Positions 1-28,912 of a stretch of 28,912 nucleotides of DNA are shown one piece after another. The stretch's first letter is position 1, and each line of letters opens with the position of its first letter. The DNA is from a virus, in the UHGV virus genome UHGV-1359478; one strand, 5' to 3'. The notes under the pieces are model-generated. The model was not told the DNA's origin, searched no databases, and saw only the letters and a list, made by a program, of their open reading frames with translations. A program made the translations under genes and the position numbers.

Positions 1-193
1 AATTGATAAGCAATGCTTTTTTATAATGCCAACTTAGTATAAAAAAGCTGAACGACAAACAGAAAACATTGTAAATATCAATATGTTATAAAAGATTTAG
101 TCTAAATAATAGACTACATAATACTACAAAACACAACATATCCAGTCACTATGAATCAACCACTTAGATGGTATTAGTGACCTGTAACAGAGC
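1..193. other. attP: lambda-type attP region: P' arm (1-33), core (34-48), P arm with arm-type Int sites (49-~193)
   Basis: Reverse complement of 1-50 reads CAGCTTTTTTATACTAAGTTGGCATTATAAAAAAGCATTGCTTATCAATT, matching my memory of lambda attP core plus P' arm. Arm-type Int-site-like motifs CAGTCACTAT (143-152) and CAGGTCACTAATA (rc of 172-184). AT-rich. Confidence 0.75.
34..48. other. 15-bp att common core (GCTTTTTTATACTAA on the minus strand)
   Basis: Exact 15/15 match to the lambda core sequence as I remember it; flanked by an 11-bp inverted copy at 15-25. Confidence 0.75.
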
Positions 194-194
194 A

Positions 195-235
195 TTAGCG
201 CAAGGTGATTTTTTGTCTTCTTGCGCTAATTTTTT
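195..235 (+). terminator. Rho-independent terminator, tI/sib-like (would terminate int-direction transcripts coming through att)
   Basis: 10-bp perfect inverted repeat TTAGCGCAAG (195-204) / CTTGCGCTAA (220-229) followed by TTTTTT (230-235). Position relative to att matches lambda sib/tI. Confidence 0.5.
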
Positions 236-348
236 GTCAATGCACTGGGTTAGTTGAATTTACAACCATGCTCAGTATCTCGATAAGCGCAGGTAGATGA
301 TGCAGTGGTGGGCTGATTACATCGATGGTCGTGCAGGAGTGTAAGCCA

Positions 349-1380
349 TTACGCGAATTCTTCCACGATCGCCATGCCAGTAGCACCATCACCACCGGTA
401 AATGCCGTACCGGTAAACCCAAGGTCATACGCGCCACCACCACCGGATCCGGGAGCTGCGCCAGCAATACCGGCCTGAGAACCCGCCCGGCCACCGCCGC
501 CAAAATACGACGCCCCGCCGTTGCCCGTCAGAAGGCTTGAGCCTGTCTGTCCATCTGAGCCGGTACCACCGTTGATCCTGATATCTCCGGTCGCCGCCGT
601 ACCTCCGGCGCCGCCGGCGGTATTGGACACGCCTGACTTCACGCCGCCTTTCCCGCCAGGAGCTGAGAACAGGCTGGCAAACGAGGTGGCCCCACCATCC
701 GCACCACTTACTGCGCCAACTCCACCCTTACCACCCTTGCCGACAGTAATCGCATAAGAACTGGCAGCAGACAGGTCAACCCATACGATAATGGTCGCGC
801 CCGCGCCGCCGCCAGCACCGGAGAAGGTTTCGGTGTTATTAGATGCCTGGCACCCGCCACCGCCGCCACCGCCTCCGACCAACGTTACTTTTGCATAACG
901 GGCCAGAGGAGAGCGCGTATAGGTTCCGTTTGCATAGAACGCTTTTGGAGCGCCAAGAGAACGCCCGACAAAACCAGAGGAATCAGATATTCCGAGGTTA
1001 TAACGGGCTTCATTTACCGCATCCTCACCGGCATCTTTAATTTCTGACAGGTTATTGCTGATCTGCAGGAAAGATAATAAAGACCCGGCGGTCATTAAAT
1101 TCGCAACAATGTCATTCGTTGACCATACACGTGCCGTAGTTCCTTCCTGACCACGAATTACTGTCATCACGTCACCGGATACAGACGTGACGTGCATAAT
1201 TTCAGAAATTGTTTTCGTGGCCGCGTCGGTTATCGTTAATTTGAAATAACTCTGCCCTGATACAGGGGACGGGAATAAAGACCCCGCTCCAGTACCCACG
1301 GTAATAACGGTAGCGGACGCGCTAATACCCGCAGCGAGAACACTCTTTGCGTTATTATTGGCTAATAGCTTCAGCGCCAT
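349..1380 (-). CDS. Tail fiber protein 2: N-terminal anchor domain shared with fiber 1, glycine-rich C-terminal region
   Basis: 343-aa ORF. First ~100 aa align with the N-terminus of the 961-aa fiber (MAL.LLA.NNA.S.LA..ISA...GTGA...P...G.SYFKLT.TDAAT...GD..T..R.QEGT.AR.W..ND.VAN.MTA). C-terminal half is long Gly/Ala/Ser/Thr runs including a G8 run. Confidence 0.7.
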   Translation of the reverse strand: MALKLLANNNAKSVLAAGISASATVITVGTGAGSLFPSPVSGQSYFKLTITDAATKTISEIMHVTSVSGDVMTVIRGQEGTTARVWSTNDIVANLMTAGSLLSFLQISNNLSEIKDAGEDAVNEARYNLGISDSSGFVGRSLGAPKAFYANGTYTRSPLARYAKVTLVGGGGGGGGCQASNNTETFSGAGGGAGATIIVWVDLSAASSYAITVGKGGKGGVGAVSGADGGATSFASLFSAPGGKGGVKSGVSNTAGGAGGTAATGDIRINGGTGSDGQTGSSLLTGNGGASYFGGGGRAGSQAGIAGAAPGSGGGGAYDLGFTGTAFTGGDGATGMAIVEEFA

Positions 1381-1435
1381 ATATACCCCAGTTAAATAAT
1401 AGAATTATCGGAACGAACATCGCAGATAGTAAACG

Positions 1436-1711
1436 TCACGACGCCGATGACAGTAACATCGTCCAGGGCTNNNNNNNNNNNNNNNNNNNNNNNNNNNNNN
1501 NNNNNNNNNNNNNNNNNNNNNNNNNNNNNNNNNNNNNNNNNNNNNNNNNNNNNNNNNNNNNTTGGCTACCCTGCTTTGGCTTCAGGGAGATATCCAGTAC
1601 AACGTAACCACCAGATCGCTCGAAGACGAGCGTATTTGGACCGACATTGCAGATCGAGTTAACCGTTAATCGCTGTTCCGTGTAGTCCGTCGCCGGTGAT
1701 GGAAAGCCCAT
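1436..1711 (-). CDS. Hypothetical protein, interrupted by the assembly gap (true length unknown)
   Basis: ATG at 1711..1709 overlaps the stop of the upstream gene (TAATG); GGGGAGGG Shine-Dalgarno 7 nt upstream. The ORF runs through the N run at 1471-1561. Confidence 0.35.
   Translation of the reverse strand: MGFPSPATDYTEQRLTVNSICNVGPNTLVFERSGGYVVLDISLKPKQGSQXXXXXXXXXXXXXXXXXXXXXXXXXXXXXXXPWTMLLSSAS
1471..1561. other. Assembly gap (91 N)
   Basis: Run of n characters in the sequence. Confidence 0.99.
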
Positions 1712-1950
1712 TACAGAACCCTCCCCATGTTGGCCATCATCCACAGGCGGTTTTCGCTGTGCTCTGCCGTTTTGTCGACGAAATAAGACTGCTCACGTGC
1801 GATCCAGGCGTTAGCCTCCACCTCGGAAAAGTGGATGCCGCGCCGGCGCAGCGCTGACACAAAATCCTTTGTGTGCAGGTACTGGTATCCTTTGGGGTTA
1901 CGCAATACCGACTCGCGGAATGCCTGATTGATGTCTGACTGTCGAAGCAT
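1711..1950 (-). CDS. Hypothetical small protein (~79 aa), function unknown
   Basis: ORF MLRQSDINQAFRESVLRNPKGYQYLHTKDFVSALRRRGIHF... between the two fiber genes. Start is either ATG at 1950 or GTG at 1971. Confidence 0.5.
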   Translation of the reverse strand: MLRQSDINQAFRESVLRNPKGYQYLHTKDFVSALRRRGIHFSEVEANAWIAREQSYFVDKTAEHSENRLWMMANMGRVL

Positions 1951-2041
1951 GATCTGCCATCCGATGAACACTGTTTTTATATACAGTAGTTTTATCGAGA
2001 GGGAAGATCAACCCCGTTCAGTCTGCGTAGGTTTTTTGTGC

Positions 2042-2329
2042 TTAGAGGGCAACAGCCCCAGCAAACTCTTCAGCTTGCATAAGTTGCCCTTCAGCCTGTT
2101 CTGTCCACGGCTTTGATGACAAAGCGTCCAGAGTTACCGCATACTCTCCTGCGTTAACTTTCGCCGCATCATTATATCGAACAGATACTGAGGCTTTAAC
2201 TTGACCTGCATCATCCTGTCTGACGCTTTCTACTGCATAAATTAAATCTATTTCAACATCCTTGTCGCAGAGATATCCTCAGAGATAATAAATCTGGACA
2301 GTTTTTACTGCTGAAATTTTAAAAGCCAT
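2042..2329 (-). pseudogene. Small ORF directly downstream of fiber 1, interrupted by an in-frame TGA at 2279..2281
   Basis: AAGGA Shine-Dalgarno then ATG 6 nt later. MAFKISAVKTVQIYYL-TGA-GYLCDKDVEIDL... continues in the same frame for 78 more codons. The stop lies in the first copy of a direct repeat TATCTCTGAGGA/TATCTCTGCGAC. Confidence 0.35.
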
Positions 2330-2338
2330 GATAATTCC

Positions 2339-5224
2339 TTATGCTGCAGAGTAATATTTATCTCCGAATATGAGATTGGCAATCTTCCTTGCCGCGACTT
2401 TCAGCGTGTAGTCGAAAGTTACGGTGTACCCGTTATCGTTCATGTGGTTGTAGTTCCCAACCGGGACGTTATATACCGACGAGTAGCCGCCCACCTCTAC
2501 GCCATACTTAAAGAACGACTTTTCACAATCGGCGAGGAACGCGCCTTTTTGACGTGCGACGACCCTTTGCATATTATTCACCATTTCGAACCGCACATCC
2601 CCCTGCACCTTAACACCGCTGCCGGACCAGTCTTTTGTTACAAAGGAAACTGACGGTGCAGGGTAAAGAATATCCTCAGCGATGGACTGCAGGTTAACGT
2701 GCCGGATCGCTGTCGAGTAGCTTCCACTTGCCGGGATTGCCTCCTGGACAGTTATGGTATTCCGGTCAGAGGAAATGGCTGTGATAGTGTAGTTGCCGGC
2801 GTTGTCTCCGCTTTCTACGCGCAGAGTATGCCCTGGCTTCAGAATATCGCCGCCATAATTCGGGTTAGCAAAGTTACTTTGCGTGATAGTGTTAGCGACT
2901 GCGTCAAAGACATAATTACTTGTTACATTATATGTCCTAACTGGCCAGAACAGTGGGTTTCCGCCGGGGATTGTGGGATACGTTTGGGACATTTCTACGT
3001 TATGGTGCGGCGTAGTACAGATGATCGGTATCGCCCCCCGTGCCAGGCACAGGTCAACCAGCTCCTCTAGCGTCCGTTTCTGCCCCGGGAAAGTGAGTCC
3101 CATGTTGAAGTTGCCAACAGGTGCATCATTCATGCCGCCAACAATCAAAACAAAGTCAGAGGTTGAATAAGGCGAATTAGCTAACTGGGCAGCGAACTGC
3201 TGGAATGCCTGGGTCGGTATGCACTGGTTATCATCGATGATGTCGAACTCGCCATACTGCTTAAGCTCTTCCTTCAAGGCGTTGACGAACAGCGTGTTCG
3301 GAGCATAAGGAGCACCCGCCGCTCCGCCGCCAGTGGAACCAGCCCCAACACCCACAGAAGGCCCAATGGACGTACAAATTATCTGGCGCTTTGTGACGGT
3401 CTTTACCCCCGCGGACCAAGTTATAGCACCGAATGGCGACTGGTCTGAAGATACCCCGGTGCCCACGAGTTTATCCGCCAGAGCAGCATAAGGGTCTGTC
3501 AGCGCCCCCTTGAGGGTCGTAACGTCTTTTGAGAGGGTCTGTATATCTGTGGTTGGATCACCGGCATACAACAGCTTAAAGTTATTCTGCGGAGAGCCAC
3601 GGTATTGCACAGTGGCTGGCATTGCCGCCCGCAGTTCTCCACCAGTTAGCGCAGTATTCGCCCCTTTGAATAAGTTACGCGTGACTGTGTTACCGTACAT
3701 GTCGGTGATGACAAGAGTCATAGCACCTGTATTTGCAGCAACTGGCTCAAAAGTAAGCTGAGTTCCATCTCCAAGTAACCCGGGAATTGTTAATGCTACT
3801 GAGTTAGGACTGGTAGCATCACTGGTAACAGTTGCCTTTGAATAACCATTAAGTACACGACTTCTGTCAGCCGGGTAGGTCAGCATCCGAAAATCTGCTG
3901 ATGAAAAATTAAATTTGATTAAATACGTGTAGCCCGCTACCAAATCTCCCGCAGCGACGTTGGTCCCGTTATTTTGCTTAATCTGCCTCGCCGTACCACC
4001 ATTAACGGAAAGAGTTGGCGTGCGGGTTATATTAGTGGCGCTTGGCGTAAAAAGAAAGACACGATCAGACGCAACAATTCCAGGGATTGCAGATGCGGTA
4101 CCGGAATAGGCATCTCCAGTATTAGCAACGCCAGACAATAACGCTACGCTATTTAATTCAAGCGTGGAAATTCTTGACGCAAGTTCAGCAGCTACTGGGC
4201 CGGATGCCACAAGGACAAAATTGTTAGCAGTCCCAGTGCGGAATTCCATCAGTGCGGGCTGATTGAGAAGCAACTCATTCCCAACTAAAGCTGCATTATT
4301 TTGTTTCTGTATTGCCCGAGTAACCGAGTTCCCCCTGGCATCTGTCACGGTAACGCTAACAGCCGCCGTATTCAAAATAGGAGACAGGAAATAAATCAAA
4401 CTGCCATCCACTAATAATCCGGGGATAGTGATAGCAATGGTATTAGCCGCACCGCTACTCACAGCTGTAGCAGACTGGTAACCCATTGGCATTGCGGATG
4501 GCATTTTCCGTCCAGTAGGCTGCAGCGTTCCTGAGGTGTTAATAACCTCAATCGCAAGAGTTGCGTCGTCAGCGCTTCGATAATACGCGGTTGATCCGAT
4601 GGGGATATTTCCAGCGTCTGCATCAGCCTGCGCAGCCGCCAGCGTAGGGAATTCGCGTATGGTATTAGTTATAGATCCCTGTCCGGGGAACTCAGCAACC
4701 TCTTGTGCTACGCCTGAGTTATTTTTGTAATAACGGAAAGCAAGGACATTTCCTGTCCCCTGGGGAACGCGGAAGTATTGCCCGCTCGTCGTCGCTGCAA
4801 GTCCAGCCGCCGTATCAGCAAAGGTTGATTTATTGTCACCAAACTCCGACGCGCTAAGTGCATATCCCTGCGCCTCTTCCGCTGAATCAGATGCCTGTTT
4901 TGCAAAATCAGCGATCACATTCAGCGTGTCAGCGGTCATCATGTTGGCAACCATATCATTGGCCGCCCACGCTCGCGCCAGCGTCCCTTCCTGTGCGCGT
5001 TCAATCGTGAAGATGTCTCCAGCCTTGGCTGTCACGTTCACGATCTCAACCTGTGAGCCAGTGGCGGCATCGGTGAGAGTGAGCTTAAAGTAACTCTCGC
5101 CTGCCACAGCATCAGGGAACTCGGCACCAGTTCCAGCGCTAACGATCAGCGACGTGTCGGTTGCGCTGATAGCAGAAGCCAGCGTGCTTTCTGCGTTGTT
5201 TGTAGCCAAAAGGGTTAGTGCCAT
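2339..5224 (-). CDS. Tail fiber protein 1 (961 aa): shared N-terminal anchor, three internal tandem repeats, C-terminal domain with a GxND motif (possible SGNH-type esterase)
   Basis: Long ORF; likely start is ATG at 5224 with a GGAGGA Shine-Dalgarno (the track ORF starts 7 codons earlier at a non-ATG). N-terminus homologous to fiber 2. Repeated ~90-aa units containing IPGLL.DG...GN.VTR. C-terminal LIVGGMNDA motif. Confidence 0.8.
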   Translation of the reverse strand: MALTLLATNNAESTLASAISATDTSLIVSAGTGAEFPDAVAGESYFKLTLTDAATGSQVEIVNVTAKAGDIFTIERAQEGTLARAWAANDMVANMMTADTLNVIADFAKQASDSAEEAQGYALSASEFGDNKSTFADTAAGLAATTSGQYFRVPQGTGNVLAFRYYKNNSGVAQEVAEFPGQGSITNTIREFPTLAAAQADADAGNIPIGSTAYYRSADDATLAIEVINTSGTLQPTGRKMPSAMPMGYQSATAVSSGAANTIAITIPGLLVDGSLIYFLSPILNTAAVSVTVTDARGNSVTRAIQKQNNAALVGNELLLNQPALMEFRTGTANNFVLVASGPVAAELASRISTLELNSVALLSGVANTGDAYSGTASAIPGIVASDRVFLFTPSATNITRTPTLSVNGGTARQIKQNNGTNVAAGDLVAGYTYLIKFNFSSADFRMLTYPADRSRVLNGYSKATVTSDATSPNSVALTIPGLLGDGTQLTFEPVAANTGAMTLVITDMYGNTVTRNLFKGANTALTGGELRAAMPATVQYRGSPQNNFKLLYAGDPTTDIQTLSKDVTTLKGALTDPYAALADKLVGTGVSSDQSPFGAITWSAGVKTVTKRQIICTSIGPSVGVGAGSTGGGAAGAPYAPNTLFVNALKEELKQYGEFDIIDDNQCIPTQAFQQFAAQLANSPYSTSDFVLIVGGMNDAPVGNFNMGLTFPGQKRTLEELVDLCLARGAIPIICTTPHHNVEMSQTYPTIPGGNPLFWPVRTYNVTSNYVFDAVANTITQSNFANPNYGGDILKPGHTLRVESGDNAGNYTITAISSDRNTITVQEAIPASGSYSTAIRHVNLQSIAEDILYPAPSVSFVTKDWSGSGVKVQGDVRFEMVNNMQRVVARQKGAFLADCEKSFFKYGVEVGGYSSVYNVPVGNYNHMNDNGYTVTFDYTLKVAARKIANLIFGDKYYSAA

Positions 5225-5246
5225 GTATCCTCCGGGATTAGGCAAT

Positions 5247-5271
5247 AAAAAAACCGCAAGCGCGGCCTTTT
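5247..5271. terminator. Short GC hairpin flanked by A7 and T4 (weak bidirectional terminator candidate)
   Basis: AAAAAAA-CCGC-AAGC-GCGG-CC-TTTT. On the minus strand the stem is followed by T7. The stem is only 4 bp, so this is weak. Confidence 0.3.
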
Positions 5272-5273
5272 AA

Positions 5274-5552
5274 ATGGTGAATATTATGAATAATGCTTCT
5301 ATTGCTATTTTAAAAATACTTTTAGGAACTCTATCTACTTTATTAATACTCCTTTCGTTCGCCTTGCTTATTATTTTATTTGGATTTCTTTTTCAGCAAG
5401 GAATGCCGCCAATAGATATGATAAAAATGTCATCCATTTTGTTTTTATCAATAGTTGTGCTGTATATAATTTGTCAGAGCGTTAAATCACATCTGTATAT
5501 AACAATAGATAATCGAGATAAAAACCTAATCAAATATCTCAACCGTGACTGA
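5274..5552 (+). CDS. Moron: small hydrophobic (two predicted TM helices) protein encoded antisense to the late operon in an AT-rich island
   Basis: 92-codon open frame in a strongly AT-rich 300-bp segment, where random ORFs of this length are unlikely. Product MNNASIAILKILLGTLSTLLILLSFALLIILFGFLF... is highly hydrophobic. No minus-strand ORF longer than 14 codons in this interval. Opposite strand to all neighbours. Confidence 0.5.
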   Translation: MVNIMNNASIAILKILLGTLSTLLILLSFALLIILFGFLFQQGMPPIDMIKMSSILFLSIVVLYIICQSVKSHLYITIDNRDKNLIKYLNRD

Positions 5553-6230
5553 CTGGTAAAACGGCATGTGCAGCAGGCCGCTATCCATGGCCTGCTTGAA
5601 AAAAATGGCGAACTCGAAATCCTCAGTGATCACAAAGGCCGTGTCCTTCTGGTTGTACTTCCTGGAGTTATAGGCCGATGCATTGTAGATAGCGCTCCGC
5701 GTGAACATGCGGCGCCCTTTATAGATGGAAATCACGATACCGCCATCCACAAACTGGATCGAGATACTCCATCGCTGGTCGTTGAGAATGTCGGTGCCAT
5801 TCACTCCCAAAAGGAACCGCAGAATACGCCGCTTTATCCATGGGATAGAGAAATAGAAGCCGTCACCTTTGTAAAAATTCCAGGTCATGATCCGCTTAAA
5901 AAGGTCATCAGAGACAACAACCTGGTTTGACTGGTCAATCACCCGGTACTCATTGAATGCCAGCTGGTTAAATTCGAAGGTGTTATATGGGCCTATCTCC
6001 TGCTGATCGCTGCTGGAAATCACCGGCGGCAAAACGCCATAGATGCCATGGGCAATCCACCGGAGCTGATCTCCGGTGTTGTAGTCACCGATGAAAATCG
6101 GCAGGTTGGCATTAACCATCCAGTCATAAATGCCCTGCGCCATCGAGTTATACGCAGTAAAAAACGCCCGCAGATTTTCATCGTCGTTGTATTGCGTATA
6201 CATATACGACCGGATGATATCGTCCAGCAT
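5526..6230 (-). CDS. Baseplate / tail-fiber attachment protein (hypothetical)
   Basis: 234-aa ORF between a baseplate-wedge-like gene and the fiber; function inferred from gene order only. Confidence 0.5.
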   Translation of the reverse strand: MLDDIIRSYMYTQYNDDENLRAFFTAYNSMAQGIYDWMVNANLPIFIGDYNTGDQLRWIAHGIYGVLPPVISSSDQQEIGPYNTFEFNQLAFNEYRVIDQSNQVVVSDDLFKRIMTWNFYKGDGFYFSIPWIKRRILRFLLGVNGTDILNDQRWSISIQFVDGGIVISIYKGRRMFTRSAIYNASAYNSRKYNQKDTAFVITEDFEFAIFFKQAMDSGLLHMPFYQSVTVEIFD

Positions 6231-6231
6231 G

Positions 6232-7650
6232 CTACGCCCCTGTTACGATCACGCCATCCGACGCGATATAAAAATAACTGAACTTATCGCCGCTGATGAT
6301 ATTCGTCCCGGCATCCGGTGGCGTTATCACACCATTGATGGTGACCACGACGTTTAAAGTGCTGATCAGCCCCATGTCGATTGTCGAGTTAATCGCCTGT
6401 AAGAATGCGTCTTTCAGGTTGTTAACGTTCAGCGGTTTCCCGGCGAATATGCCGTTCACATACTGAATCGTAGGAGCCGAGACCAGAGAGGCGACCGTCG
6501 CATCAGTCAGGTAGTTAACACTTTCGGTCCCCCACTGATACGTCACAGTGACCCGCTGCAGCAATGGCGTCACGAACGGGATCACGTAGTTATCAGGCCA
6601 GTCATTCACCGTCACGGTATTGTTTCTGACGTTCGGTGTCACCTCGCCGCCGCCTCCCCAGGTCCCGGATGAAGTGGTATCAATCCCGATGGAAAAAGTG
6701 TGAGGAGACAGTACCGTCACGGTCAGAGGAACGTCATTAATACCCGTCATCCCGGTAACGCCAGTGATCCGGATAACCTGGCCGTCAGTGTAGCCATGAG
6801 TCAGGTCTGTGCTGACGACGCCAGGATTTGCATTCGTGATCCCAGTTACATTCAGTGAACACCCTTTCAGCCGGCTGATATCCCCCGCAGACTTATAGAG
6901 CGCGCCAGCAATATCGTAAATATCACCGCCGGCGCACATGACTATCCACTTATCCCCGTCCTGAATGACAGAAACCAGGCGCGCCTGCACGTTATCAAGG
7001 CTGGTGAGATATTGCCGGATAAATCCAGGATATCCCTGAACGGTGGCCATCTGCGCCTGCCATACGCGATCACGAAACTGATAGTTCGTTTCCGGGTCAG
7101 CACCAGGAGTGCCGGCGATCGGGTTGGTGCAGGTAATGGTTACGTCAGACGGTAGACTGGATATGATCTGGTTAACCGTATTTACCGGAACCGCCCAGGT
7201 CCCGGTCTCTGTTCCCTCGCATGATACGCTGGCAGACACTCCTGACGACGAGATTATCGTCGCATCACTGACTGAATAGGTATAGGTCCCATCAGAAACA
7301 ATAAACCCCTGTGGGATAACAAATCCCGCGGGGCCGGAAAACTGAACCGGGACTGTTGTTGTGCCAGCCGTTTTCTGCCCAGGAATACCAGCCTGCTGTG
7401 CGAGAAGCTCCAGCATGGCCAGGTTAGCCTTTAGTGGCCCCACCGAGTTAATCAGGTCAACCCTTGCTTGATCACAAACGATGAGCGCGCCGACATCGGT
7501 ACTGGCCACGTCCTCAATCAGAGATCCAGGCAAATCAGTTGTGAGTCCCGGAGATAGCGCAACTGCCTGAGAAACGAGCTGTGCTCTTAGCTCTTCCGGC
7601 GTCAGAGGAACCGGGCCTGCTGACGTATAGCTGACTGGTAAATCGCTCAT
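6232..7650 (-). CDS. Baseplate wedge protein (J-like) carrying an inserted ~60-aa module
   Basis: 472-aa ORF in the baseplate block. Contains HGYTDGQVIRITGV...TFSIG, a module also seen in two other virion proteins. Confidence 0.5.
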   Translation of the reverse strand: MSDLPVSYTSAGPVPLTPEELRAQLVSQAVALSPGLTTDLPGSLIEDVASTDVGALIVCDQARVDLINSVGPLKANLAMLELLAQQAGIPGQKTAGTTTVPVQFSGPAGFVIPQGFIVSDGTYTYSVSDATIISSSGVSASVSCEGTETGTWAVPVNTVNQIISSLPSDVTITCTNPIAGTPGADPETNYQFRDRVWQAQMATVQGYPGFIRQYLTSLDNVQARLVSVIQDGDKWIVMCAGGDIYDIAGALYKSAGDISRLKGCSLNVTGITNANPGVVSTDLTHGYTDGQVIRITGVTGMTGINDVPLTVTVLSPHTFSIGIDTTSSGTWGGGGEVTPNVRNNTVTVNDWPDNYVIPFVTPLLQRVTVTYQWGTESVNYLTDATVASLVSAPTIQYVNGIFAGKPLNVNNLKDAFLQAINSTIDMGLISTLNVVVTINGVITPPDAGTNIISGDKFSYFYIASDGVIVTGA

Positions 7651-7979
7651 ACGGCCACCTGTGTAATTATTTTTGAACCTGCGTTTGTGATTGCCGAGAT
7701 GTTATAAACAGGCGGGTCATCGCTGATCAGTGCAATCTGCAGCGAGGAAAAATACTGGCTGAACTGTTTTTGAATACGGTTTACGTAATACGTCGGCAGG
7801 ATTTGCTGGATCACCGACCCGGCGGCCGGTATTCCGTTGTTCGCATAAAAGGGTGACTCCTGCGGCGCCAGTTTCAGATTCTGGATCAGGGTGGTTAAAT
7901 ACACCAAGTCATTAAACCCATTTTCGTCGGTTTCCACCAGGACCCACTTCCCCTCAGAGTTTCGGCCATAGGTTCTCAC
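7647..7979 (-). CDS. Small baseplate protein (gp25/W-like by size and position)
   Basis: 110-aa ORF, translationally coupled (overlapping stop/start) with its neighbours. Confidence 0.45.
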   Translation of the reverse strand: MRTYGRNSEGKWVLVETDENGFNDLVYLTTLIQNLKLAPQESPFYANNGIPAAGSVIQQILPTYYVNRIQKQFSQYFSSLQIALISDDPPVYNISAITNAGSKIITQVAV

Positions 7980-19318: not shown

Positions 19319-20935
<1,617 letters not shown>

Positions 20936-20944
20936 TTAATGCTC

Positions 20945-21766
20945 CTATGCTGCTTTCATGGACTCCAGGAACTTGCGGCCCTTCTGGGTCAGCATGTCCT
21001 CGGGAATGCTGCGGAGGTTGTACAGATAGGTGACGTAGCACCGACAGAAAACCTCTTCGCCAGGCTGCGTAATTTCGTCGAGATAGCCGGCAGGGCCAGC
21101 TTTGACATAGCCATTTTTCTGCGCCCAGTTCCCGCGGATGAGATAGATCAGCTTGTCCCTCTCCTTGTGATCTTCCCGGTAGTCGTACCCTGGCTGGCGC
21201 CAGTGGCTATGCCACTCGGCAGCAATCGCGTTGTTGCCCGTCGCGATGATGTTGTCGATATTGGCGATCAGCTTATGGCTCTGGTCAATCATCACGCGGC
21301 GCGCTTCATAGTCCACCTTCTCGGCGGCCTTCTGAATGTGCGCCGCCGTCTCCCGCATCGTTCCCTGAATGCCGGTCAGCGCAATGCTGTCTGCTGAGGG
21401 AATGCTGCTGGCCCATCCGCTAAACCGCGACAGAGTAGTGTCGATGGCTTTCTTGCGATTCAGCTTTATCAGGTCAGCGCTGGCCAGGATGCGGCGATCC
21501 AGCTCGCTGCGTAACTTCGGCTCCATGTAGTTCAGCGTGAAGCGCGAAAGCCCCTTGTGGCGCTCCAGCGCTCCAGCCTTGCTCACCTGCAGGTCATAGG
21601 TCTTACGCAACCGATCCGACACCATGCTCATGTAGTCGTCATCGGTTTCGCTTTCGGCCGCCTGCCGGATAATGGCCTGCCATTGCTCCAGCTCCTGCCT
21701 CGAGGTGTAGCCATTGCGCAGAAAGAACTTCACCGCCTCGCGTACGGTGCGCGTGAAAGTCTTCAT
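20945..21766 (-). CDS. Head morphogenesis / minor head protein candidate
   Basis: 273-aa ORF immediately downstream of the portal gene, the usual position of SPP1 gp7/Mu F-like proteins. Confidence 0.45.
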   Translation of the reverse strand: MKTFTRTVREAVKFFLRNGYTSRQELEQWQAIIRQAAESETDDDYMSMVSDRLRKTYDLQVSKAGALERHKGLSRFTLNYMEPKLRSELDRRILASADLIKLNRKKAIDTTLSRFSGWASSIPSADSIALTGIQGTMRETAAHIQKAAEKVDYEARRVMIDQSHKLIANIDNIIATGNNAIAAEWHSHWRQPGYDYREDHKERDKLIYLIRGNWAQKNGYVKAGPAGYLDEITQPGEEVFCRCYVTYLYNLRSIPEDMLTQKGRKFLESMKAA

Positions 21767-23178
21767 AGCATCATCCCGCCGCCGGGCTCTTCATCCCGTG
21801 GCTGTTCAGGCCGGTTAGCCTTTAACGAGTCGATATCGAGATCAAGTCGCTGCGGGAACAGGCTTTCGTTAGCGTTCGCGTTGGTCTGCGCCCACTCGAT
21901 AAGAAGCGCGCGGTTCTCATCATCCGTGTTGACCTGCGGGAGAAGGACTTCCAGCATGCTGACGATGGCCTTAAAGCGGATTTCGTCGACCTTCACTTTT
22001 TCGCTTTCCGGCTCTTTCAGGGATGACGGCCAGCGATATTCGAAGTTGTTAATCCATGAGGAGAAATACAGGCTGTACGTGTTTTTAAGCTCCGGGAAGT
22101 CAGCACGCAGAGAATTGAAAAACTCAATGCTCCAGGCGCGATACTGGCAAATACGGATGAAATAGTCATACAGCGGCTCAAGCCACTCGCGGATGTTGTC
22201 GATGTAGACTGCAACAGATCGAGCGTCTTCCGTCCCCTCGCCGAAGCCCTGGGCGAATGTTTCCGAGTTCAGAATGATAGCCGGCATGTCAGCTGCCGCA
22301 GCGATATTCTCCAGAATGTGATTCCGGGAGGAGTCGAGCGGCTTTTCCAGGTTGCTCAGGTCGATGGATTCGATGCTGTCATTTGCGCCGATCTGCAGGA
22401 CTTCGCCTGTCTTCCCTCGCTTCAGCATCATTCGTTTGATGCCGCTGAGCTTTTGCATCATGTTGTTGACGACTGAGCTAGGTCCCTGAATCTTCGTTAC
22501 CAGCAAGCCACCCTTCACGGAAACCATGTCATCGGTGCGCATGGTCTGGATGAAGGATTTCAGCGGGAACAGAGCGCGCTGGTAAACGCTGCGACCGGTA
22601 AAGCCAAAGGCAGCAGAGTTATAGGCCAGATAAATCGGGTCCTCGTTCTGTTGCACAACACAGCGGGATTTGTGATACGGCTTGCCCGCCACTCTGATCC
22701 CGTCGACCTTCTGAAAGTCCTGCGCGTTCGGATCCTGGTTCAGGACGATGCTTCCGGCAGTGTTCAGCGGGTCGAGAATGTTGAATGTCACGTTGTGCTT
22801 ATACAGCGTGCGGTAGTCCACCGCAGAGGACGGCTCCTGGTTATCAACCAGCATTGCGATCGCCGAAACACCGTAAATGCGAGAGATGCGCGCCGCATTA
22901 GCGATGTGCTTATCGGCGCCCAGTGCTTTCCACTCCCGCTCAAATGCATCGCGGAGACGCTGCTCAATGCCATACGCCTGCGAAATGTGAACCGTGCGCG
23001 ACTCGTTCATCGCCATCTTGATCGGGCGATCTACCATTTTCCCGCCCAACGGGTGGAAGAGGTAAATCGTTTTGCAGGTCTGATAGCCAGCCGACATACC
23101 CGGCTGAATGTCATCGCTGTCCAGGAGCGTGATCAGCTCCGGCGAGCAACTGCCGATTGCGATATCATCTTCGTTCAT
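21763..23178 (-). CDS. Portal protein candidate
   Basis: 471-aa ORF immediately downstream of large terminase, acidic C-terminus; called from size and order. Confidence 0.55.
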   Translation of the reverse strand: MNEDDIAIGSCSPELITLLDSDDIQPGMSAGYQTCKTIYLFHPLGGKMVDRPIKMAMNESRTVHISQAYGIEQRLRDAFEREWKALGADKHIANAARISRIYGVSAIAMLVDNQEPSSAVDYRTLYKHNVTFNILDPLNTAGSIVLNQDPNAQDFQKVDGIRVAGKPYHKSRCVVQQNEDPIYLAYNSAAFGFTGRSVYQRALFPLKSFIQTMRTDDMVSVKGGLLVTKIQGPSSVVNNMMQKLSGIKRMMLKRGKTGEVLQIGANDSIESIDLSNLEKPLDSSRNHILENIAAAADMPAIILNSETFAQGFGEGTEDARSVAVYIDNIREWLEPLYDYFIRICQYRAWSIEFFNSLRADFPELKNTYSLYFSSWINNFEYRWPSSLKEPESEKVKVDEIRFKAIVSMLEVLLPQVNTDDENRALLIEWAQTNANANESLFPQRLDLDIDSLKANRPEQPRDEEPGGGMML

Positions 23179-23189
23179 TGGTTTTCTCG

Positions 23190-24521
23190 CTAGAGTGCGT
23201 CGCCGCTACCGAACGCGATGATCAGCCCGTAGGTGTAATCATCCAGCAAATCGTCGGCGCGCTTGTGCGCGTTCTTATCGGCAAGGTGGAATCGTGATAC
23301 CTGCTTATGCAGATGGTTTGCTGTTTCGCCCTTGAAGACTGCCGTCTTCTCGTAGGCGTATCGGGATATTTTCGCCAGCCCGCGGTAGTGATACCCAGAG
23401 GCCATAATGGCGCGCTCGTCCTTCCCTTTGCTGGTCAGGGCGGATTCAATTTTGTTGACCGGCCATCCCAGGCTCTCGCCTTTCTGCAGGAGGATGCTGC
23501 CCATACTGGCGTCTTCAATGAAAACGCCGAGGCTGCCATTTACAGCGACGCACTGGCCGGATAGCTCATTCAGCCTGGTGAAAACGGACGGAATCCACTC
23601 TTCCAGCAGCGCGCCGTCGATCTGCACCACATCCCAGTCAAGAATGGTCAGGCGCTGAATTCCGGGCCGGGTGTCGACGGCGTAGTAAACCACCGCCGTG
23701 CCGTCGTGCTCTGTACCGCCCTTAACTGCGGTATCCATGACAGCGAAGACGGCCTGACACATCTCCGGGTAATCGACAGGCTGATCCTGGTTTTCACCCT
23801 CGAACCATTTGCGAACGTCGAAAAGCGACGCAGCGGACCAGTCGACGAACTCGGCTAGGAACTCCTGCCGGAAAACGCGCGGATCGTTGTTCTGTCGCTC
23901 TTTCTCCAGCTCCTCGGGAGGAACGAAGGGGTTTGATGACGTCGGCGCGTGATGCTCATGGAAGCCGAGGTCTTTGTTATGGCAGATGGCATAGAAGAAA
24001 TTTTCTTCGTCCACACCGTCAGGTGTTGAGAATACGTAAGCCCGGCCCTTTGTCGTCAGCAGCGTCGGCTTAATCGACTTCGGCCAGATTTCCTTCAGCA
24101 TTTCAGGCGACTTGGTAAAAGCCGCCTCATCGATCAGGATAATTTCGTACTCACGACCACGACCGGCCAGTTTGTTGTCGTTGGTGACCCAGAAGTCAAT
24201 CTTCCCGCCGTTCTTCAGCAGCAGGCGCTTTTCCTGCCGGCTAAAACTCTTTTTCAGCGGCAACAGGATTTCTTCCAGCTTGTCGTAGATCTCCTGGTAC
24301 TGGCGATACTCGGCAGTGAAGATACCGACCCGGCCGCCCAGCTCGATGTCCATGCCCGGGCGCCGAAACTGCGACGTTGCGTAGGTCACCGCGGCGCTCG
24401 ACAGCATGAAGGTTTTCCCCCAGCGTCGACCACAGCGAACCGCATTCAACTGGTGATCCCAGGAATCAGACCAGACCGTTAACTGCCCGTTGTGTAGCGT
24501 GGGTAGGTAAATGTCGGCCAT
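23190..24521 (-). CDS. Terminase large subunit
   Basis: 443-aa ORF with Walker A-like GRRWGKT and Walker B-like IILIDEA; follows the small terminase gene. Confidence 0.85.
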   Translation of the reverse strand: MADIYLPTLHNGQLTVWSDSWDHQLNAVRCGRRWGKTFMLSSAAVTYATSQFRRPGMDIELGGRVGIFTAEYRQYQEIYDKLEEILLPLKKSFSRQEKRLLLKNGGKIDFWVTNDNKLAGRGREYEIILIDEAAFTKSPEMLKEIWPKSIKPTLLTTKGRAYVFSTPDGVDEENFFYAICHNKDLGFHEHHAPTSSNPFVPPEELEKERQNNDPRVFRQEFLAEFVDWSAASLFDVRKWFEGENQDQPVDYPEMCQAVFAVMDTAVKGGTEHDGTAVVYYAVDTRPGIQRLTILDWDVVQIDGALLEEWIPSVFTRLNELSGQCVAVNGSLGVFIEDASMGSILLQKGESLGWPVNKIESALTSKGKDERAIMASGYHYRGLAKISRYAYEKTAVFKGETANHLHKQVSRFHLADKNAHKRADDLLDDYTYGLIIAFGSGDAL

Positions 24522-24524
24522 GAT

Positions 24525-25265
24525 TTATCTTCCCGGTATTGGCAGCGAGTTATGCACGACGATCGCGTTATCCTTGTCGCCGTCTTTCAGTACATCAATT
24601 TCGAGCTCAACCTTTTCGGTCGCGGCTTCGCGGTAAGCGGCATCAACGCGCTGCTTGATAATCGCCGCCTTGGTGTACTCCAGCGACTCAATGCGCGCAG
24701 TGTTGCGATGCATGGCTTTCTGCGCCTGAGAGATGAGGTCGTGCAGATCTTTGGCCTGCTCGCTGGCGGCTGTCTCCAGCTCTGTCTGCCAGCGCCCGAT
24801 ATTCTCTGCCGCTGTCAGGCTCGCCGCTCGCAGCCAGAAAAGCTCATCGTCGAGCGTGAGCATCTTGGCATCTTCGGTGATGGCGTCAGATAGCAGCATC
24901 CGGCGGCCATAGCCACCATGCTTTAATGCGTTCTGGTTGCCAGGCTGGAAGGCGTTCGTCGGCGGAGCAGTGCGCGATCCGCGTATCGGTTTCGTTTCTG
25001 GAGATTTTGAGTGGGCGCCTGTGTCGGGCTGGTTTTTTTTCACCTCCCCGTTTTTACTGACCCCGCCTTTCTCCTTCTGCGAATTCGCAGATTTGTTCGC
25101 ACTTTTTTTTTGCGAATTCGCACCGTAAGTCGTTACTTTGATATAGCGTTTCGCAGATGAGTAATTCAGTCCCTGCGCTGCGCACCAGTCTTTCGGGGAT
25201 ATTCCTGTTTTGGCATGCTCGGCGAGGAACTGGTGTTGCAGTGCTCCCCAGTCCGGTTTTGCCAT
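24525..25265 (-). CDS. Terminase small subunit
   Basis: 246-aa ORF with N-terminal helix-turn-helix-like region, low-complexity basic linker, FQPGNQNALKHGGY motif resembling small terminases; GAGGTAAGGA Shine-Dalgarno. Confidence 0.6.
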   Translation of the reverse strand: MAKPDWGALQHQFLAEHAKTGISPKDWCAAQGLNYSSAKRYIKVTTYGANSQKKSANKSANSQKEKGGVSKNGEVKKNQPDTGAHSKSPETKPIRGSRTAPPTNAFQPGNQNALKHGGYGRRMLLSDAITEDAKMLTLDDELFWLRAASLTAAENIGRWQTELETAASEQAKDLHDLISQAQKAMHRNTARIESLEYTKAAIIKQRVDAAYREAATEKVELEIDVLKDGDKDNAIVVHNSLPIPGR

Positions 25266-25322
25266 AGTCCTTACCTCGTTGTGACATTATCGAGCCACCT
25301 CTGGAAGTGGCTCTGTAATGCC

Positions 25323-25790
25323 TTACTTCAGGCACTGCGTGGTGATGTATTCCTGCAGGGCTCTCAGGGCTGTTTGGTCGCTGAGGATTCCGGACCGGAT
25401 ACCGAGAACGTTTCGTCCAGCAACTGCAGAGAGTTCGACGGTGGCATCATTGCCCATGCCGGAGGCGCTGGAGGTTTTGGCTGAGGCTGGCACAGGGCAT
25501 TTTCCTTTGACGAGCACCCGACCACCATTATCAAGCTTGCGCCGAAGAGCATCATTTTCAGCTTTCGCATCAGCTAACTCCTTCGTGTATTTAGCATCGA
25601 GTACATCAGCAGCACGCTGGCGTTGCTGCATGTCAGTAATGGTGGCGGTCGCCTGCTTCAGCTCACTGACTTTTTTATCTCGCTGCTCTTTGTAGGCGAT
25701 GGCGTTATCACGGTAATGATTAACAGCCCATGACAGGCAGACGATGATGCAGATAACCAGAGCGGAGATAATCGCGGTTACTCTGCTCAT
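25323..25790 (-). CDS. Rz: Spanin inner-membrane subunit Rz
   Basis: 155-aa ORF with N-terminal TM segment and coiled coil; high similarity to lambda Rz from memory; overlaps the R stop. Confidence 0.85.
25364..25570 (-). CDS. Rz1: Spanin outer-membrane lipoprotein Rz1, embedded in the +1 frame of Rz
   Basis: Lipobox-like MVVGC followed by a Pro-rich stretch [11 protein letters not shown]; lies wholly inside Rz. Confidence 0.7.
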
Positions 25791-26263
25791 ACCTCAATCT
25801 CTCTGACCGTTCCGCCAGCTTCTTTGAATTTTGCAATCAGGCTGTCAGCCTTATGCTCGAACTGACCATAACCAGCCCCCGGCAGTGAAGCCCAGATATT
25901 GCTGCAACGGTCGATAGCCTGACGGATATCACCGCGATCAATCATCGGTAAAGCGCCACGCTCTTTAATCTGCTGCAATGCCACAGCGTCCTGGCTTTTG
26001 GGAGAGAAGTCTTTCAGGCCAAGCTGCTTACGATAGGCATCCCACCAACGGGAAAGAAGCTGGTAGCGTCCGGCGGCTGTTGATTTGAGTTTGGGGTTTA
26101 GCGTGACAAGTTTGCGAGGGTGATCGGAGTAATCAGTGAATAGCTCTCCGCCAACAATGACGTCATAACCATGATTTCTGGTTTTCTGCCGTCCGTTATC
26201 AGTTCCCTCCGACCACGCCAGCATATCGAGGAACGCCTTACGTTGATTATTGATTTCCACCAT
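25787..26263 (-). CDS. R: Endolysin (lambda R-type lytic transglycosylase)
   Basis: 158-aa product [51 protein letters not shown]... nearly identical to lambda R as I remember it. Confidence 0.9.
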
Positions 26264-26570
26264 CTTCTATTCCGGCTTTTTTAGCAGCGAAGCGTTTGAT
26301 AAGCGAACCAATCGAGTCAGTACCGATGTAGCCGATAAACACGCTCGTTATATAAGCGAGATTGCTACTTAGTCCGGCGAAGTCGAGAAGGTCACGAATG
26401 AACCAGGCGATAATGGCGCACATCGTTGCGTCGATTACTGTTTTTGTAAACGCACCGCCATTATATCTGCCGCGAAGGTACGCCATTGCAAACGCAAGGA
26501 TTGCCCCGATGCCTTGTTCCTTTGCCGCGAGAATGGCGGCTAACAGGTCATGTTTTTCTGGCATCTTCAT
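26247..26570 (-). CDS. S: Holin/antiholin (lambda S-type) with dual-start MKM motif
   Basis: 107-aa product [39 protein letters not shown]... nearly identical to lambda S as I remember it; overlaps R start. Confidence 0.9.
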
Positions 26571-26690
26571 GTCTTACCCCCAATAAGGGGATTTGCTCTA
26601 TTTAATTAGGAATAAGGTCGATTACTGATAGAACAAATCCAGGCTACTGTGTTTAGTAATCAGATTTGTTCGTGATCGATATGCACGGGC

Positions 26691-26725
26691 AAAACGGCAG
26701 GATGTTGTTAGCGCGACCTCCTGCC
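26691..26725 (-). promoter_or_regulatory. GC-rich hairpin followed by GTTTTG in the late leader (attenuator/terminator candidate)
   Basis: Minus strand GGCAGGA-16 nt loop-TCCTGCC then GTTTTGCCC, ~130 nt upstream of S. Confidence 0.3.
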
Positions 26726-27020
26726 ACCCGCTTTCACGAAGATCATGTGTAGAAGGCCGCAGCGTAACTATCACTGATGAATTCAGGATAGCCAGTGGCT
26801 ACGGCTCAGTTTGGGTTGTGGCGGCCGGAATCGAACCGGCTTCCATCGGTGCGCTGCCGATTGCAGTACGCGCGGCGGTCAGCTACATGACTAGTATTTT
26901 CACTGTCGCCTATCTGCTAGCTCGCCATTGAGCTTCACCACAACGATAAGAGCACTGCGCGGCACCTTTCACCAATTCCGCGAGGTCTGCTGGTTCAATG
27001 CTCTTACCTGTTGTGCAAAC

Positions 27021-27058
27021 AAAAAAAGCCACCGTTGCAACTTAAGAGTCACTAACGG
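27021..27058 (-). terminator. Promoter-proximal terminator candidate (T7 tract after a weak stem) in the Q-S intergenic region
   Basis: Minus strand CCGTT...AACGG stem then TGGC-TTTTTTT. The stem is weak and the loop long, so this is tentative. Confidence 0.25.
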
Positions 27059-27072
27059 CAGCTTATGCGAAT

Positions 27073-27101
27073 AGTGTTGCTCATTTGCTCAATGATGTCA
27101 A
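27073..27101 (-). promoter_or_regulatory. Candidate late promoter (pR'-like) immediately downstream of Q
   Basis: Consensus -35 TTGACA at 27096-27101 (minus strand) directly after the Q stop; the -10 17 nt downstream (AACACT) is poor. Confidence 0.25.
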
Positions 27102-27107
27102 CACGTT

Positions 27108-27596
27108 CTATGCTACATGTTTAATTTTCTCTACACGTTTCCGATTTTTAAACGCACTATCCAGAACCGGGTAAATCATAAACAACGAGGCGTTAAGGAT
27201 TTCGTCAACTTCCCGTCGACAGGTTGCGAGCGATGGTTTTTGAATGCGCCCACCGCCACGGCATAACATCTTGCGAGGTCTTGCGACGCAATGATAGTAA
27301 GATGCAATGGCGTGCTTGGAAGAGCCATGAGCGTAGTAGCTGAGGAGGATACCAAAGGCTTTCTTGTCAATGCACATGACGGAATCGACGACCTGAGAAA
27401 TCAACATTCCATCATCATCATTACACATTGGCCTTGTCATAACTCTTCCCGGCTCTACGCTCTCCATGAACTTCGCTATTACGCTGCTCATGCGCTTTTC
27501 CAGACGACCTGAATAAACCCATGCGCCCCACAGTTCAAGCCAGCCATTCAGCCACTCATGCTGTTCTTTGGTGAGGTTTAGTTCTCTTATGCCCAC
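27108..27596 (-). CDS. Q: Late-gene antiterminator Q, QuuD/phage 21/82-like type (not lambda Q type)
   Basis: 162-aa ORF between ninI and the late leader. Motifs [24 protein letters not shown] resemble the QuuD/Q21 family as I remember it. Overlaps the ninI end. Confidence 0.65.
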
Positions 27597-28258
27597 GCGC
27601 CTTCTCCCTGTACCTGAATCAATGTGAGGTTTCCGCAGAACACTGCGCCGGTATCGATATACATCTGGTTGGCAAATTTGAGTGGTTTCACTGCTGGCGT
27701 ATGACCAAAGATGAACGTGTCCGCGCCTTTGATTTCTTTCACGATCCCGTCTTGTGAGTTGCCGATTCGTTCGCGGTTCCAGATTACCTGCTGATGATCA
27801 ACTGGCTTTCCAAACTCGTATTCATCACAAGGATAATCGGCGTGGCAAATGACATATTTTTTACCTTTGCTCACCAGTTCGATGATTAACGGAAGTTCTT
27901 CTGCTTTATGGGAAAGAGCTTTAGCCAGAATTTCTTTGTCGTAATCGAGATTAAAGAACCAGCCACCGCCATTAAGCAGCCAGTGATTGACGTTTCCACG
28001 CTCTGATAAGCCATCAATCATCATGTGTTCATGGTTTCCACGTACAGCTCTGAACCAGGGGAATGTGATTAATTCCAGGCATTCGACGTTCTCTGTACCG
28101 CGATCGACCAAATCGCCCACCGAGATAAGCAGGTCTTTTTTGTTGTCGAATCCAATCGTATCCAGTTTGTTCATCAGGTTCGTGTAGCATCCGTGCAGAT
28201 CGCCAACTACCCAAATATTTCGGTATTTGCTGCCATCAATTCTTTCGTAGATATTCAT
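27587..28258 (-). CDS. ninI: Ser/Thr protein phosphatase (lambda NinI / lambda-PPase homologue)
   Basis: 223-aa product with metallophosphatase motifs GDLHG, GDLVDRG, GNHE; near-identical to lambda phosphatase as I remember it. Confidence 0.9.
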
Positions 28259-28860
28259 GCAGCCTCACTTCTGCTGTTTCGCAGTTTTTTAAGTTTCTGT
28301 TGATACTCCGCCTTGATGGTCCTGCACTCTTCGACAGTCCAGCGATGGCGGTTATGGTTTGATTCGATTTCGTCTACTGCTTCCTGCCCGATGCGGTCAA
28401 TCAGTTCGACGCGATACGGAACGAGATTTCCGCTTTTGTGCTGGTTGCACACCACGCATTGCTTGTGAATATTGCGTTCATCAAATCGGAGTTGAGGCGC
28501 CGCAGCAGTTGTCCGGTAATGCCCGGCATCCCACTGAGCAGACGTGAGCGTTCCGCACGAGATACATGGTAAGTCGCGGTCTCTTTCTCTGATGAAGGCG
28601 TTTACGGCTTGTTGGGCTTGTTTAATCCAGTAACTGCGGGGCTTTAAGGCGAGTTTTCGAATCTTCAGTTTATCTTTCTGTTTCTGCTCCTCTCGTCGTC
28701 GTTTCTTCTCTGCTGCTTTTTCCGCTTTTTTTCGCTGTTTACTTTGTAGTTTGAGTGCTAACTGAGTTCCGTGTTCCGGGCAGCACCACCACTGATTTGA
28801 GAATGCCGGGTGAAACCATTCCTTGCATATTTTGCATTTCCTTCGCGCTGGTTTAGCCAT
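28255..28860 (-). CDS. ninG: NinG (Rap-like recombination-associated protein)
   Basis: 201-aa product [10 protein letters not shown]...CISCGT...CVVCNQHK with Cys clusters and basic [13 protein letters not shown] segment; matches lambda NinG from memory. Confidence 0.85.
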
Positions 28861-28912
28861 CGTCTTCTTCCTCGTACATTGAGCTATTCGGATCGCTCAT
28901 CAGTTCTGCGCA
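28853..28912 (-). CDS. 3' end of an upstream nin-region ORF (partial, runs off the window)
   Basis: Open frame ending ...MYEEEDDG with TAA overlapping the ninG start (ATGGCTAAA). Too short to assign. Confidence 0.3.

Follow-up and report, generated by a model that had tools for sequence, protein, structure and literature searches.

How does one phage come to carry a lambda-type attachment site and lambda-type lysis genes on either side of the genes of a contractile tail, and is its DNA that of a free phage or part of a bacterial chromosome? These questions are raised by UHGV virus genome UHGV-1359478, a stretch of 28,912 nucleotides (nt) that we call the window and whose positions are used throughout. 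A sequence-only reading had described a mosaic genome in which lambda-like segments are joined to a contractile-tail module, and blastn and profile matches bear this out. Altogether, our results make it very likely that the window represents ~29 kb, the greater part of the late half, of a ~45-kb temperate lambdoid phage of Escherichia coli, in non-integrated (attP) configuration and assembled from exchangeable modules. These are a lambda-type integration module, a nin/Q/lysis module in which ninG, ninI, S and R are lambda alleles and Q belongs to another family, and between them a 20-kb virion module of the Felixviridae type. Such a mosaic is what module swapping among lambda-like phages ordinarily yields, and modular mosaicism of lambdoid phages, contractile-tail members included, is textbook knowledge. 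The phage is real, functional-looking and unsurprising.

Lambda-like segments on either side of a virion block

We compared the window directly with lambda (NC_001416) by blastn and tblastx. Lambda-matching DNA totals ~2.8 kb at 91–97% identity, with matching segments in both end stretches compared, 1–350 and 25300–28860. Between 240 and 25440 neither program found any lambda similarity and, in the reverse direction, lambda 1–27533, with cos and the head and non-contractile tail genes A, B, E, V, H and J, has no blastn or tblastx match in the window. The morphogenesis block had been called unrelated to that of lambda and ordered as sheath, tube and baseplate; both statements hold, the second through sheath, hub and Baseplate_J profiles and a tube-fold model described below. 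S, R, Rz, ninI, ninG and the att site had been called lambda-identical. They are close alleles (91–97% by blastn) and not identical ones, and the 3' third of Rz and Rz1 are non-lambda. Other E. coli lambdoids resemble the lambda-like flanks more closely than lambda itself does, with 94–98% identity to phages PDP110P1 and PDP110P2 and 98.5% to a prophage of E. coli ST540.

Read from 28912 to 1, the minus strand carries the 3' end of ninF, ninG, ninI, Q, S, R and Rz with embedded Rz1; small and large terminase, portal, a MuF-like protein, a NUDIX-protease/scaffold fusion, capsid and neck genes; and then sheath, tube, tape measure, baseplate, a 961-amino-acid (aa) tailspike, two small genes, a glycine-rich fibre, a hairpin and att. 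The open reading frame (ORF) listing of the window places all long ORFs with known-family matches on this strand, and the late genes are open without a frameshift (26 of 26). The lambdoid order ninF-ninG-ninI-Q-S-R-Rz-terminase...fibres-att is kept, and the ST540 relative supplies cII, cro, cI, N, cIII, kil, xis and int. G+C content is 55–60% in the virion block (12001–25000), 46–50% in the nin/Q region (27001–28000) and ~44–52% in the fibre region, a step consistent with a Klebsiella-type origin of the structural module. Joints between modules are cleanly located by this phage, at ~240–258, within the tailspike gene at ~4663–4911, at ~25320 (the Rz stop), ~25543–25561, 26814–26820 and 27594, and most lie at or near gene boundaries.

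Abrupt identity breaks at ~240–258 and ~25320 and a G+C step between blocks are also what would be expected if assembly or binning had fused a lambda-like phage with an unrelated myovirus. However, both joints recur in independent assemblies: the copies L014 and L018 are 99.9–100% identical to the window across 30–15224, the ST540 prophage is contiguous with it across the small-terminase/Rz joint (21783–26617), and the virion block stands beside lambda-family lysis genes in E. coli strain 361 and in over 40 further complete genomes. Because independent assemblies span both joints we reject a chimera, which we regard as scarcely conceivable, and read the window as DNA of a naturally mosaic phage.

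A Felixviridae core as virion module

Which virion does the block between the lambda-like segments encode? The window contains the ~20-kb structural core of the Felixviridae at 5528–25322. A conserved structural core of ~20.2 kb (RothD gp1–gp24), similar to that of minimal myophages, is what members of this family share, with little conserved outside it (PMC12629751). Over the same interval the window is 95–97% identical in nt to, and collinear gene by gene with, the Klebsiella phages vB_Kpn_Chronis (MN013086) and RothC/RothD (PP934563/4) of the Felixviridae, Maevirinae, except in the central part of the tape measure gene, which differs in Chronis and RothC. Virion gene sizes equal those of Chronis, a plaque-forming phage, save for three (273 versus 276 aa, 148 versus 144 aa and, for the tape measure, 627 versus 655). 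The module comprises the following features.

23190–25265, minus strand: terminase, large subunit at 23190–24521 (PF03237 Terminase_6N, phrog_2) and small subunit at 24525–25265 (phrog_370, E 3e-84)
20945–23178, minus strand: MuF-like head morphogenesis protein at 20945–21766 (phrog_324, E 4e-29) and portal at 21763–23178 (PF06381, E 2e-20; phrog_146, E 4e-69)
19319–20932, minus strand: NUDIX domain (PF00293, E 3e-16) fused to a DUF2213/Pa193_gp24 head protease-/scaffold-like region (PF09979, E 2e-5)
15065–19303, minus strand: neck/head-completion genes, major capsid gene (17398–18429) and a 286-aa head protein (phrog_6671; phrog_264, major head; PF09950, weak)
13666–15060, minus strand: tail sheath (phrog_205, E 8e-52; 97% aa identity to RothC and Chronis)
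13225–13662, minus strand: predicted tail tube, directly after the sheath (AlphaFold 2 model, pLDDT 71)
10708–12591, minus strand: tape measure with a lytic transglycosylase domain (phrog_7694, phrog_2276, phrog_873; PF01464 SLT on homologues)
5526–10708, minus strand: baseplate genes, 97% identical to those of Chronis, including Baseplate_J at 6232–7650 (PF04865, E 6e-12; phrog_6) and the hub at 8689–9726 (phrog_196, E 3e-33)

No annotated family includes the 145-aa product of the gene that follows the sheath. Its AlphaFold model, made from 29 homologues and of moderate confidence (pLDDT 71), gave as best Foldseek matches in the PDB the tail of phage 812 (neck and neck–tail junction), a gene transfer agent virion and Hcp, with E values of 2e-4 to 1e-3, which points to a tail tube. 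Protein sequence searches with sheath, tube and capsid against PDB chains gave no match. The sheath, putative tube and baseplate genes together suggest a contractile tail.

An SfV-like or Mu-like affiliation, a comparison suggested by the sequence-only reading, was rejected because sheath tblastn and nucleotide searches revealed no sequence relationship. Homologues of the sheath occur in 14 of 50,697 phage records, from Klebsiella phages, Yersinia vB_YenM, Pantoea PdC23 and a few distant ones; SfV and Mu are absent from these 14 and from the nucleotide searches. The block is instead the Felixviridae core, as in Chronis, RothC/D and PdC23. The SfV and Mu types resemble the window phage in concept, as temperate enterobacterial phages with contractile tails and, in the case of SfV, lambdoid regulation.

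Several virion genes are of interest in their own right. The 537-aa fusion at 19319–20932, which also matches phrog_530 and phrog_2229 (head maturation protease), has its NUDIX domain (PF00293) N-terminally at residues 9–112; where related E. coli prophages have a different head module (L020, L022), the Pa193_gp24 protein lacks NUDIX. A virion-associated NUDIX enzyme could enter the cell with the DNA. In RefSeq E. coli genomes, homologues of the portal (PF06381 Phage_portal_3, phrog_146; 21763–23178) are called 'anti-CBASS protein Acb1 family protein' by PGAP and those of Baseplate_J 'ubiquitin-activating E1 FCCH domain-containing protein', both of which mislead as names of virion proteins. 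A strongly hydrophobic 92-aa ORF lies on the plus strand (5274–5552), within the 280 bp of AT-rich DNA that separate the tailspike gene from the last baseplate gene. It has no Pfam or PHROG match and is uncalled in contig L018, which is identical; it may encode a membrane protein of the moron type or be non-coding.

A lambda-type attachment site in attP form

At the other end of the question stands the att site, which occupies the first bases of the window and, with the hairpin beside it, consists of four features.

1–33, minus strand: beginning of the attP P' arm, with the C' core-type site and a part of the IHF H' region, identical to lambda 27739–27771; the window edge cuts the arm
34–48, minus strand: attP 15-bp common core GCTTTTTTATACTAA, exact, the sole occurrence in the window, 15/15 against lambda 27724–27738
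49–189, minus strand: attP P arm, with Int arm-type sites P2 (138–157) and P1 (170–189) conserved
187–243, plus strand: tI/sib-type hairpin followed by a U run, a near-perfect match to lambda 27534–27585 (RNA fold −24.2 kcal/mol, z −4.4)

Window 1–239 corresponds to lambda 27771–27534 at 91.2% (blastn). Aligned part by part, P1 is conserved at 20/20 positions, P2 at 19/20, the core footprint at 33/34 and a further 24 nt of P' at 24/24; the interval 58–136, which in lambda holds the Xis, Fis and IHF-H2 sites, has diverged (62/79). The hairpin at 187–243, just beyond which lambda similarity stops, closes the lambda-like att module on its outer side, at the place where int transcripts (plus strand) and the late operon (minus strand) run towards each other. 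Its location and sequence make it the counterpart of the lambda tI/sib region, and it would act as a terminator.

The sequence-only reading had taken the order P arm, core, P' arm to be that of attP and not of an attL or attR junction, and this is confirmed by comparison with integrated copies. In two integrated relatives (L004 and L014) bases 1–33 are replaced by the bacterial B' sequence (cttcccgtttcgctcaag), beside ybhB/bioA. Since these bases in the window are lambda P' and not bacterial B', the joint is attP and neither attL nor attR; it is P-O-P'. The b region had been described as almost absent, and so it is: there is no homologue of ea47, ea31 or ea59, no more than ~110 bp separate the end of the last fibre-type gene, at 349, from the start of the lambda-like tI/P-arm segment. 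Two small non-structural genes do lie between the two fibre genes.

Free phage, chromosomal joint or remnant

Relatives in E. coli genomes show where this phage integrates. The same phage is present in E. coli GCA_030178115.1 on contig SSJF01000003.1, 99.9–100% identical over 30–15224, as a simple insertion at lambda attB beside ybhB/bioA with a B'-O-P junction. Integration at the lambda site between gal and bio therefore does occur. This is the only public contig with the exact tailspike protein, and there it is integrated. ST540 (NZ_CP007391, 3144148–3189560) carries a complete ~45-kb prophage between ybhB and ybhC that is 96–99% identical to the window and has int, xis, repressor and replication genes; over int-xis its identity to lambda is 98.6%, and the att-int-xis stretch in ST540 and PDP110P1 is 96.8–98.6% identical to lambda. 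The virion block is found in 43–56 of 5426 complete E. coli genomes, 43 of them at ≥80% coverage (~1%), mostly in prophages at argW with IntS. The argW prophages have IntS instead of lambda Int and differ in their tailspike alleles; one of these, the argW/IntS prophage of strain 361, shares 4911–25320 at 99.2%.

Is the window then a free genome, as had been proposed? The P-O-P' joint agrees with a non-integrated or excised genome, but the joint alone is no proof of one, since an attP-form joint can also lie inside a bacterial chromosome, either between tandem prophages (attL-phage-attP-phage-attR) or in a duplicated or rearranged fragment. A single P'-O-P place is present in 7 of the 5426 complete chromosomes. 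Strain XM, an extraintestinal pathogenic E. coli (ExPEC), carries xis-int-attP-tailspike in its chromosome, and ST540 has, besides its attB prophage, an 11-kb attP-joined copy of the sister phage. Such joints are nevertheless rare: among 1912 genomes with any match there are 7, at least two of them laboratory strains. Numerous frameshifts give the ST540 copy the look of an assembly artefact, in the sole public contig where the identical tailspike occurs the phage is simply inserted at attB, and attP is the default form in any phage-genome record. We consider a chromosomal origin of the joint unlikely and favor a phage genome in attP form.

The two chromosomal cases merit description. In ST540 (104–115 kb; L030, 415–11439) the int and fibre ends are joined via the core (P'-O-P) in a frameshift-rich 11-kb segment that is 99.6% identical to the ends of the strain's own attB prophage and has truncated chromosomal genes on both sides; the assembly has probably either captured excised phage DNA or gone wrong here. 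In ExPEC XM (NZ_CP025328, 838–856 kb; L029) the order is xis-int-attP-acyltransferase-P22-like tailspike, with the attP-form joint 95.7% identical to window 3–140. Here the attP form stands in a complete chromosome, in a podovirus-type lambdoid.

The element might also be defective or cryptic, for instance a prophage in decay or a remnant of the tailocin kind, and not viable as a phage. In favor of this, part of one gene is masked and ninH is absent. Yet the 26 late genes are open without a frameshift and, save for three, are of the sizes found in plaque-forming Chronis, the att sites are conserved, and a complete 45-kb relative has int, xis, repressor and replication genes. In lambda, ninH is dispensable. 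A remnant is even less likely than a chromosomal joint, and an apparently functional temperate phage remains our preferred reading.

A number of points weigh against this reading. The window stops ~40 nt beyond the core centre and includes only 33 nt of the P' arm. The P'1–P'3 arm sites lie ~52–83 nt beyond the core centre. With P'1–P'3 and int beyond base 1, the intactness of attP, which had been asserted, is not demonstrable from the window; int, xis and P'1–P'3 are all outside it, and we infer the integration competence of this copy from its relatives. The exact 41-mer of this attP variant is unmatched in the viral, genome and metagenome contig collections. A run of Ns at 1471–1561 hides part of a UmuD'-like gene and measures 91 nt against 89 nt in every relative, so that the reading frame of the gene in this copy cannot be judged. 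The late promoter is assigned from a −35 hexamer and a hairpin and is uncalled by a generic promoter scan, and the contractile morphology derives from the genes and from literature on relatives.

Relation to Klebsiella and lambdoid phages

Chronis is a temperate phage placed in the 'lambda-like supercluster' (PMC7163006). The records of Chronis and RothC have the lambdoid order int-xis...cI-cro-cII-O/P-nin-Q-lysis-terminase, the same temperate layout as in the window phage, and Chronis and the Roth phages likewise have 79-aa, UmuD'-like and glycine-rich fibre genes beside the integrase end. Outside the virion module they differ from it: Chronis has a DUF4102-type integrase in place of lambda-type att/int and a Klebsiella instead of an E. 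coli host, RothC has a different holin and an R21-like endolysin in place of lambda S/R/Rz, and the Q allele and the receptor-binding part of the tailspike are different in Chronis/RothC. For Felixviridae (ICTV, 2025) the intergenomic similarity thresholds, taken over the whole genome, are ≥45% for a subfamily and ≥70% for a genus. Of window 1–25000, 77% aligns with Chronis at 95.6%; the window spans 29 of ~45 kb, and the early half outside it is expected to be unrelated, as in ST540.

With lambda the window phage has in common the attP core, P1, P2, the tI hairpin, S, R, the 5' part of Rz, ninI, ninG and ninF, and the order nin-Q-lysis-virion-fibres-att. Lambda features without a counterpart in the window are ninH, cos/nu1/A, the head and non-contractile tail genes and the b-region genes, and lambda differs in its Q (PF03589 versus PF06530) and in the Rz 3'/Rz1 allele. 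By head and tail the window falls outside the genus Lambdavirus, with no lambda-type head, tail or cos and with a sheath and baseplate.

The Lambdavirus PDP110P1 (OZ035751) and the Wanchaivirus PDP110P2 (OZ035745) match window 1–1470 at 97.9%, 1563–4663 at 86% and 25300–28912 at 94–97%. They share with it att, the glycine-rich fibre, the C-terminal part of the tailspike, lysis genes, Q and nin. Their virion modules, by contrast, are siphoviral (lambda- or HK97-like) and have nothing in common with window 4663–25295 save one weak match, of 227 nt at 71% in the small-terminase gene of PDP110P2.

These comparisons raise the possibility that the 20-kb core that defines the Felixviridae is a freely exchangeable cassette, moved recently, in one recombining lambdoid pool that spans Klebsiella and E. 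coli, a proposal for which we judge the odds to be even. If true, the boundary of a family-level taxon would cut through a single phage population, and the regulatory, lysis and integration chassis of lambda would drive siphovirus, podovirus and myovirus virions interchangeably in nature. Family-level classification by the structural core sets apart phages whose remaining genes are for the most part common to Lambdavirus members. The virion module belongs to a family that already has a name, the module and the prophage relatives were already in public databases, and as a discovery the phage matters little; its practical value is as a record of an E. coli branch of the Felixviridae module, itself named recently, and this branch is present in ~1% of complete E. 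coli genomes and uses the lambda attachment site.

How the phage would work

In the scenario that we envision, the promoter and terminator that follow directly on the Q gene are the place of Q action, and polymerase would read through the hairpin-U7 terminator at 27064–27019. Transcription would then cover one ~27-kb late operon on the minus strand, comprising S-R-Rz/Rz1, terminase, head, sheath, tube, baseplate and two fibres and ending at the att hairpin. DNA would probably be packaged by the headful, given a terminase of the Terminase_6N type and no lambda cos, nu1 or A. Int, encoded just past base 1, would recombine the core with attB between gal and bio. With 55–60% G+C and 95–97% identity to phages of Klebsiella, the virion module has probably passed recently between the lambdoid pools of Klebsiella and E. 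coli.

Two fibre-type proteins and the genes between them

Between the baseplate and att lie two fibre-type genes and two small ones.

349–1380, minus strand: glycine-rich tail-fibre-type protein, 343 aa, the last late gene (PF21722, E 3e-15; phrog_863, 6202 and 454, down to E 1e-65)
1392–1711, minus strand: UmuD'/HumD-like 105-aa gene (copy at L018:13514–13831 matches phrog_3469, UmuD-like, E 2e-46)
1711–1950, minus strand: 79-aa gene with no assigned function (phrog_3893, E 3e-40), called in all related prophages
2339–5224, minus strand: chimeric tailspike/fibre, 961 aa, with a GDSL/SGNH-esterase-like region (PF13472, weak; homologues named SGNH/GDSL hydrolase by PGAP)

The tailspike gene is composed of two parts: 4911–5255 belongs with the virion block, and 2339–4663, which encodes the C-terminal ~775 aa, is 86% identical in nt to the siphoviruses PDP110P1/P2. 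The N-terminal ~100 aa of the tailspike and of the glycine-rich protein are 48% identical (E 2e-32), and the C-terminal parts are unrelated. This shared N-terminal region suggests that the two proteins probably dock at the same baseplate site and would provide two receptor-binding specificities, one with a GDSL/SGNH-type esterase.

We also considered whether the glycine-rich, UmuD'-like and 79-aa genes form an accessory or defence island that replaces the b region. This idea was rejected (the padloc library was not searched): the glycine-rich protein, with its tail-fibre family matches and the N-terminal domain of the tailspike, is better read as a second fibre. The coordinates 1392–1711 were mapped from the unmasked L018 copy, the Ns at 1471–1561 masking part of the gene. 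Its 105-aa product has the size of pre-processed UmuD'. The 79-aa and UmuD'-like genes (1392–1950) are kept beside four different integration modules.

nin genes, Q and lysis cassette

The remaining features make up the right end of the window.

28255–28860, minus strand: ninG, with the 3' end of ninF beyond it (28255–28912 = lambda 43043–42380, 92.0%, blastn)
27587–28258, minus strand: ninI (27594–28249 = lambda 43888–43233, 96.6%, blastn)
27108–27596, minus strand: antiterminator Q (PF06530 Phage_antitermQ, E 4e-25)
27019–27101, minus strand: candidate late promoter, −35 TTGACA (27101–27096), and tR'-like hairpin with U7 (27064–27019), read from the sequence
26813–26871, minus strand: tRNA/tmRNA-like T-arm and acceptor fragment (GCCGGTTCGATTCCGGC...ACC; RF00023, 20 bits, gathering score 47)
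25323–26570, minus strand: lambda-type lysis cassette, S 26247–26570, R 25787–26263, Rz 25323–25790 and Rz1 25364–25570

NinI and NinG are confirmed by Pfam (PF00149 and PF05766, E 4e-89) and PHROGs. No counterpart of lambda 43043–43233, where ninH lies, is present in the window. Q had been assigned to another family than that of lambda, correctly so: it matches PF06530, lambda Q matches PF03589 in the same scan, and 26820–27594 has no DNA match to lambda. The hairpin just downstream of Q folds at −21 kcal/mol (z −2.1); a generic sigma-70 promoter scan did not call a late promoter there. In other E. coli contigs an identical NinG protein with NinI-Q-S-R-Rz precedes at least three unrelated virion modules, and a lambda-type Q can also precede a Felix-type module.

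Window 25543–26820 corresponds to lambda 46213–44936 at 95.7% (blastn) and includes S, R and the 5' two-thirds of Rz; the cassette is further identified by PF05106, PF03245, phrog_126, phrog_90 and phrog_13. Rz in its 3' third, together with the Rz1 ORF embedded in it (25364–25570, lipobox VVGC), represents a non-lambda allele.

No RNA gene was found in the window by Rfam at the gathering threshold or by ARAGORN, and relaxed Rfam settings gave the sub-threshold fragment at 26813–26871 only. Homology to lambda and to L019-type relatives breaks at 26814–26820, between Q and S, and a tRNA-like sequence occupies the same Q–S place in related contigs (L019). The fragment is possibly the remnant of a tRNA gene that was once a recombination joint.

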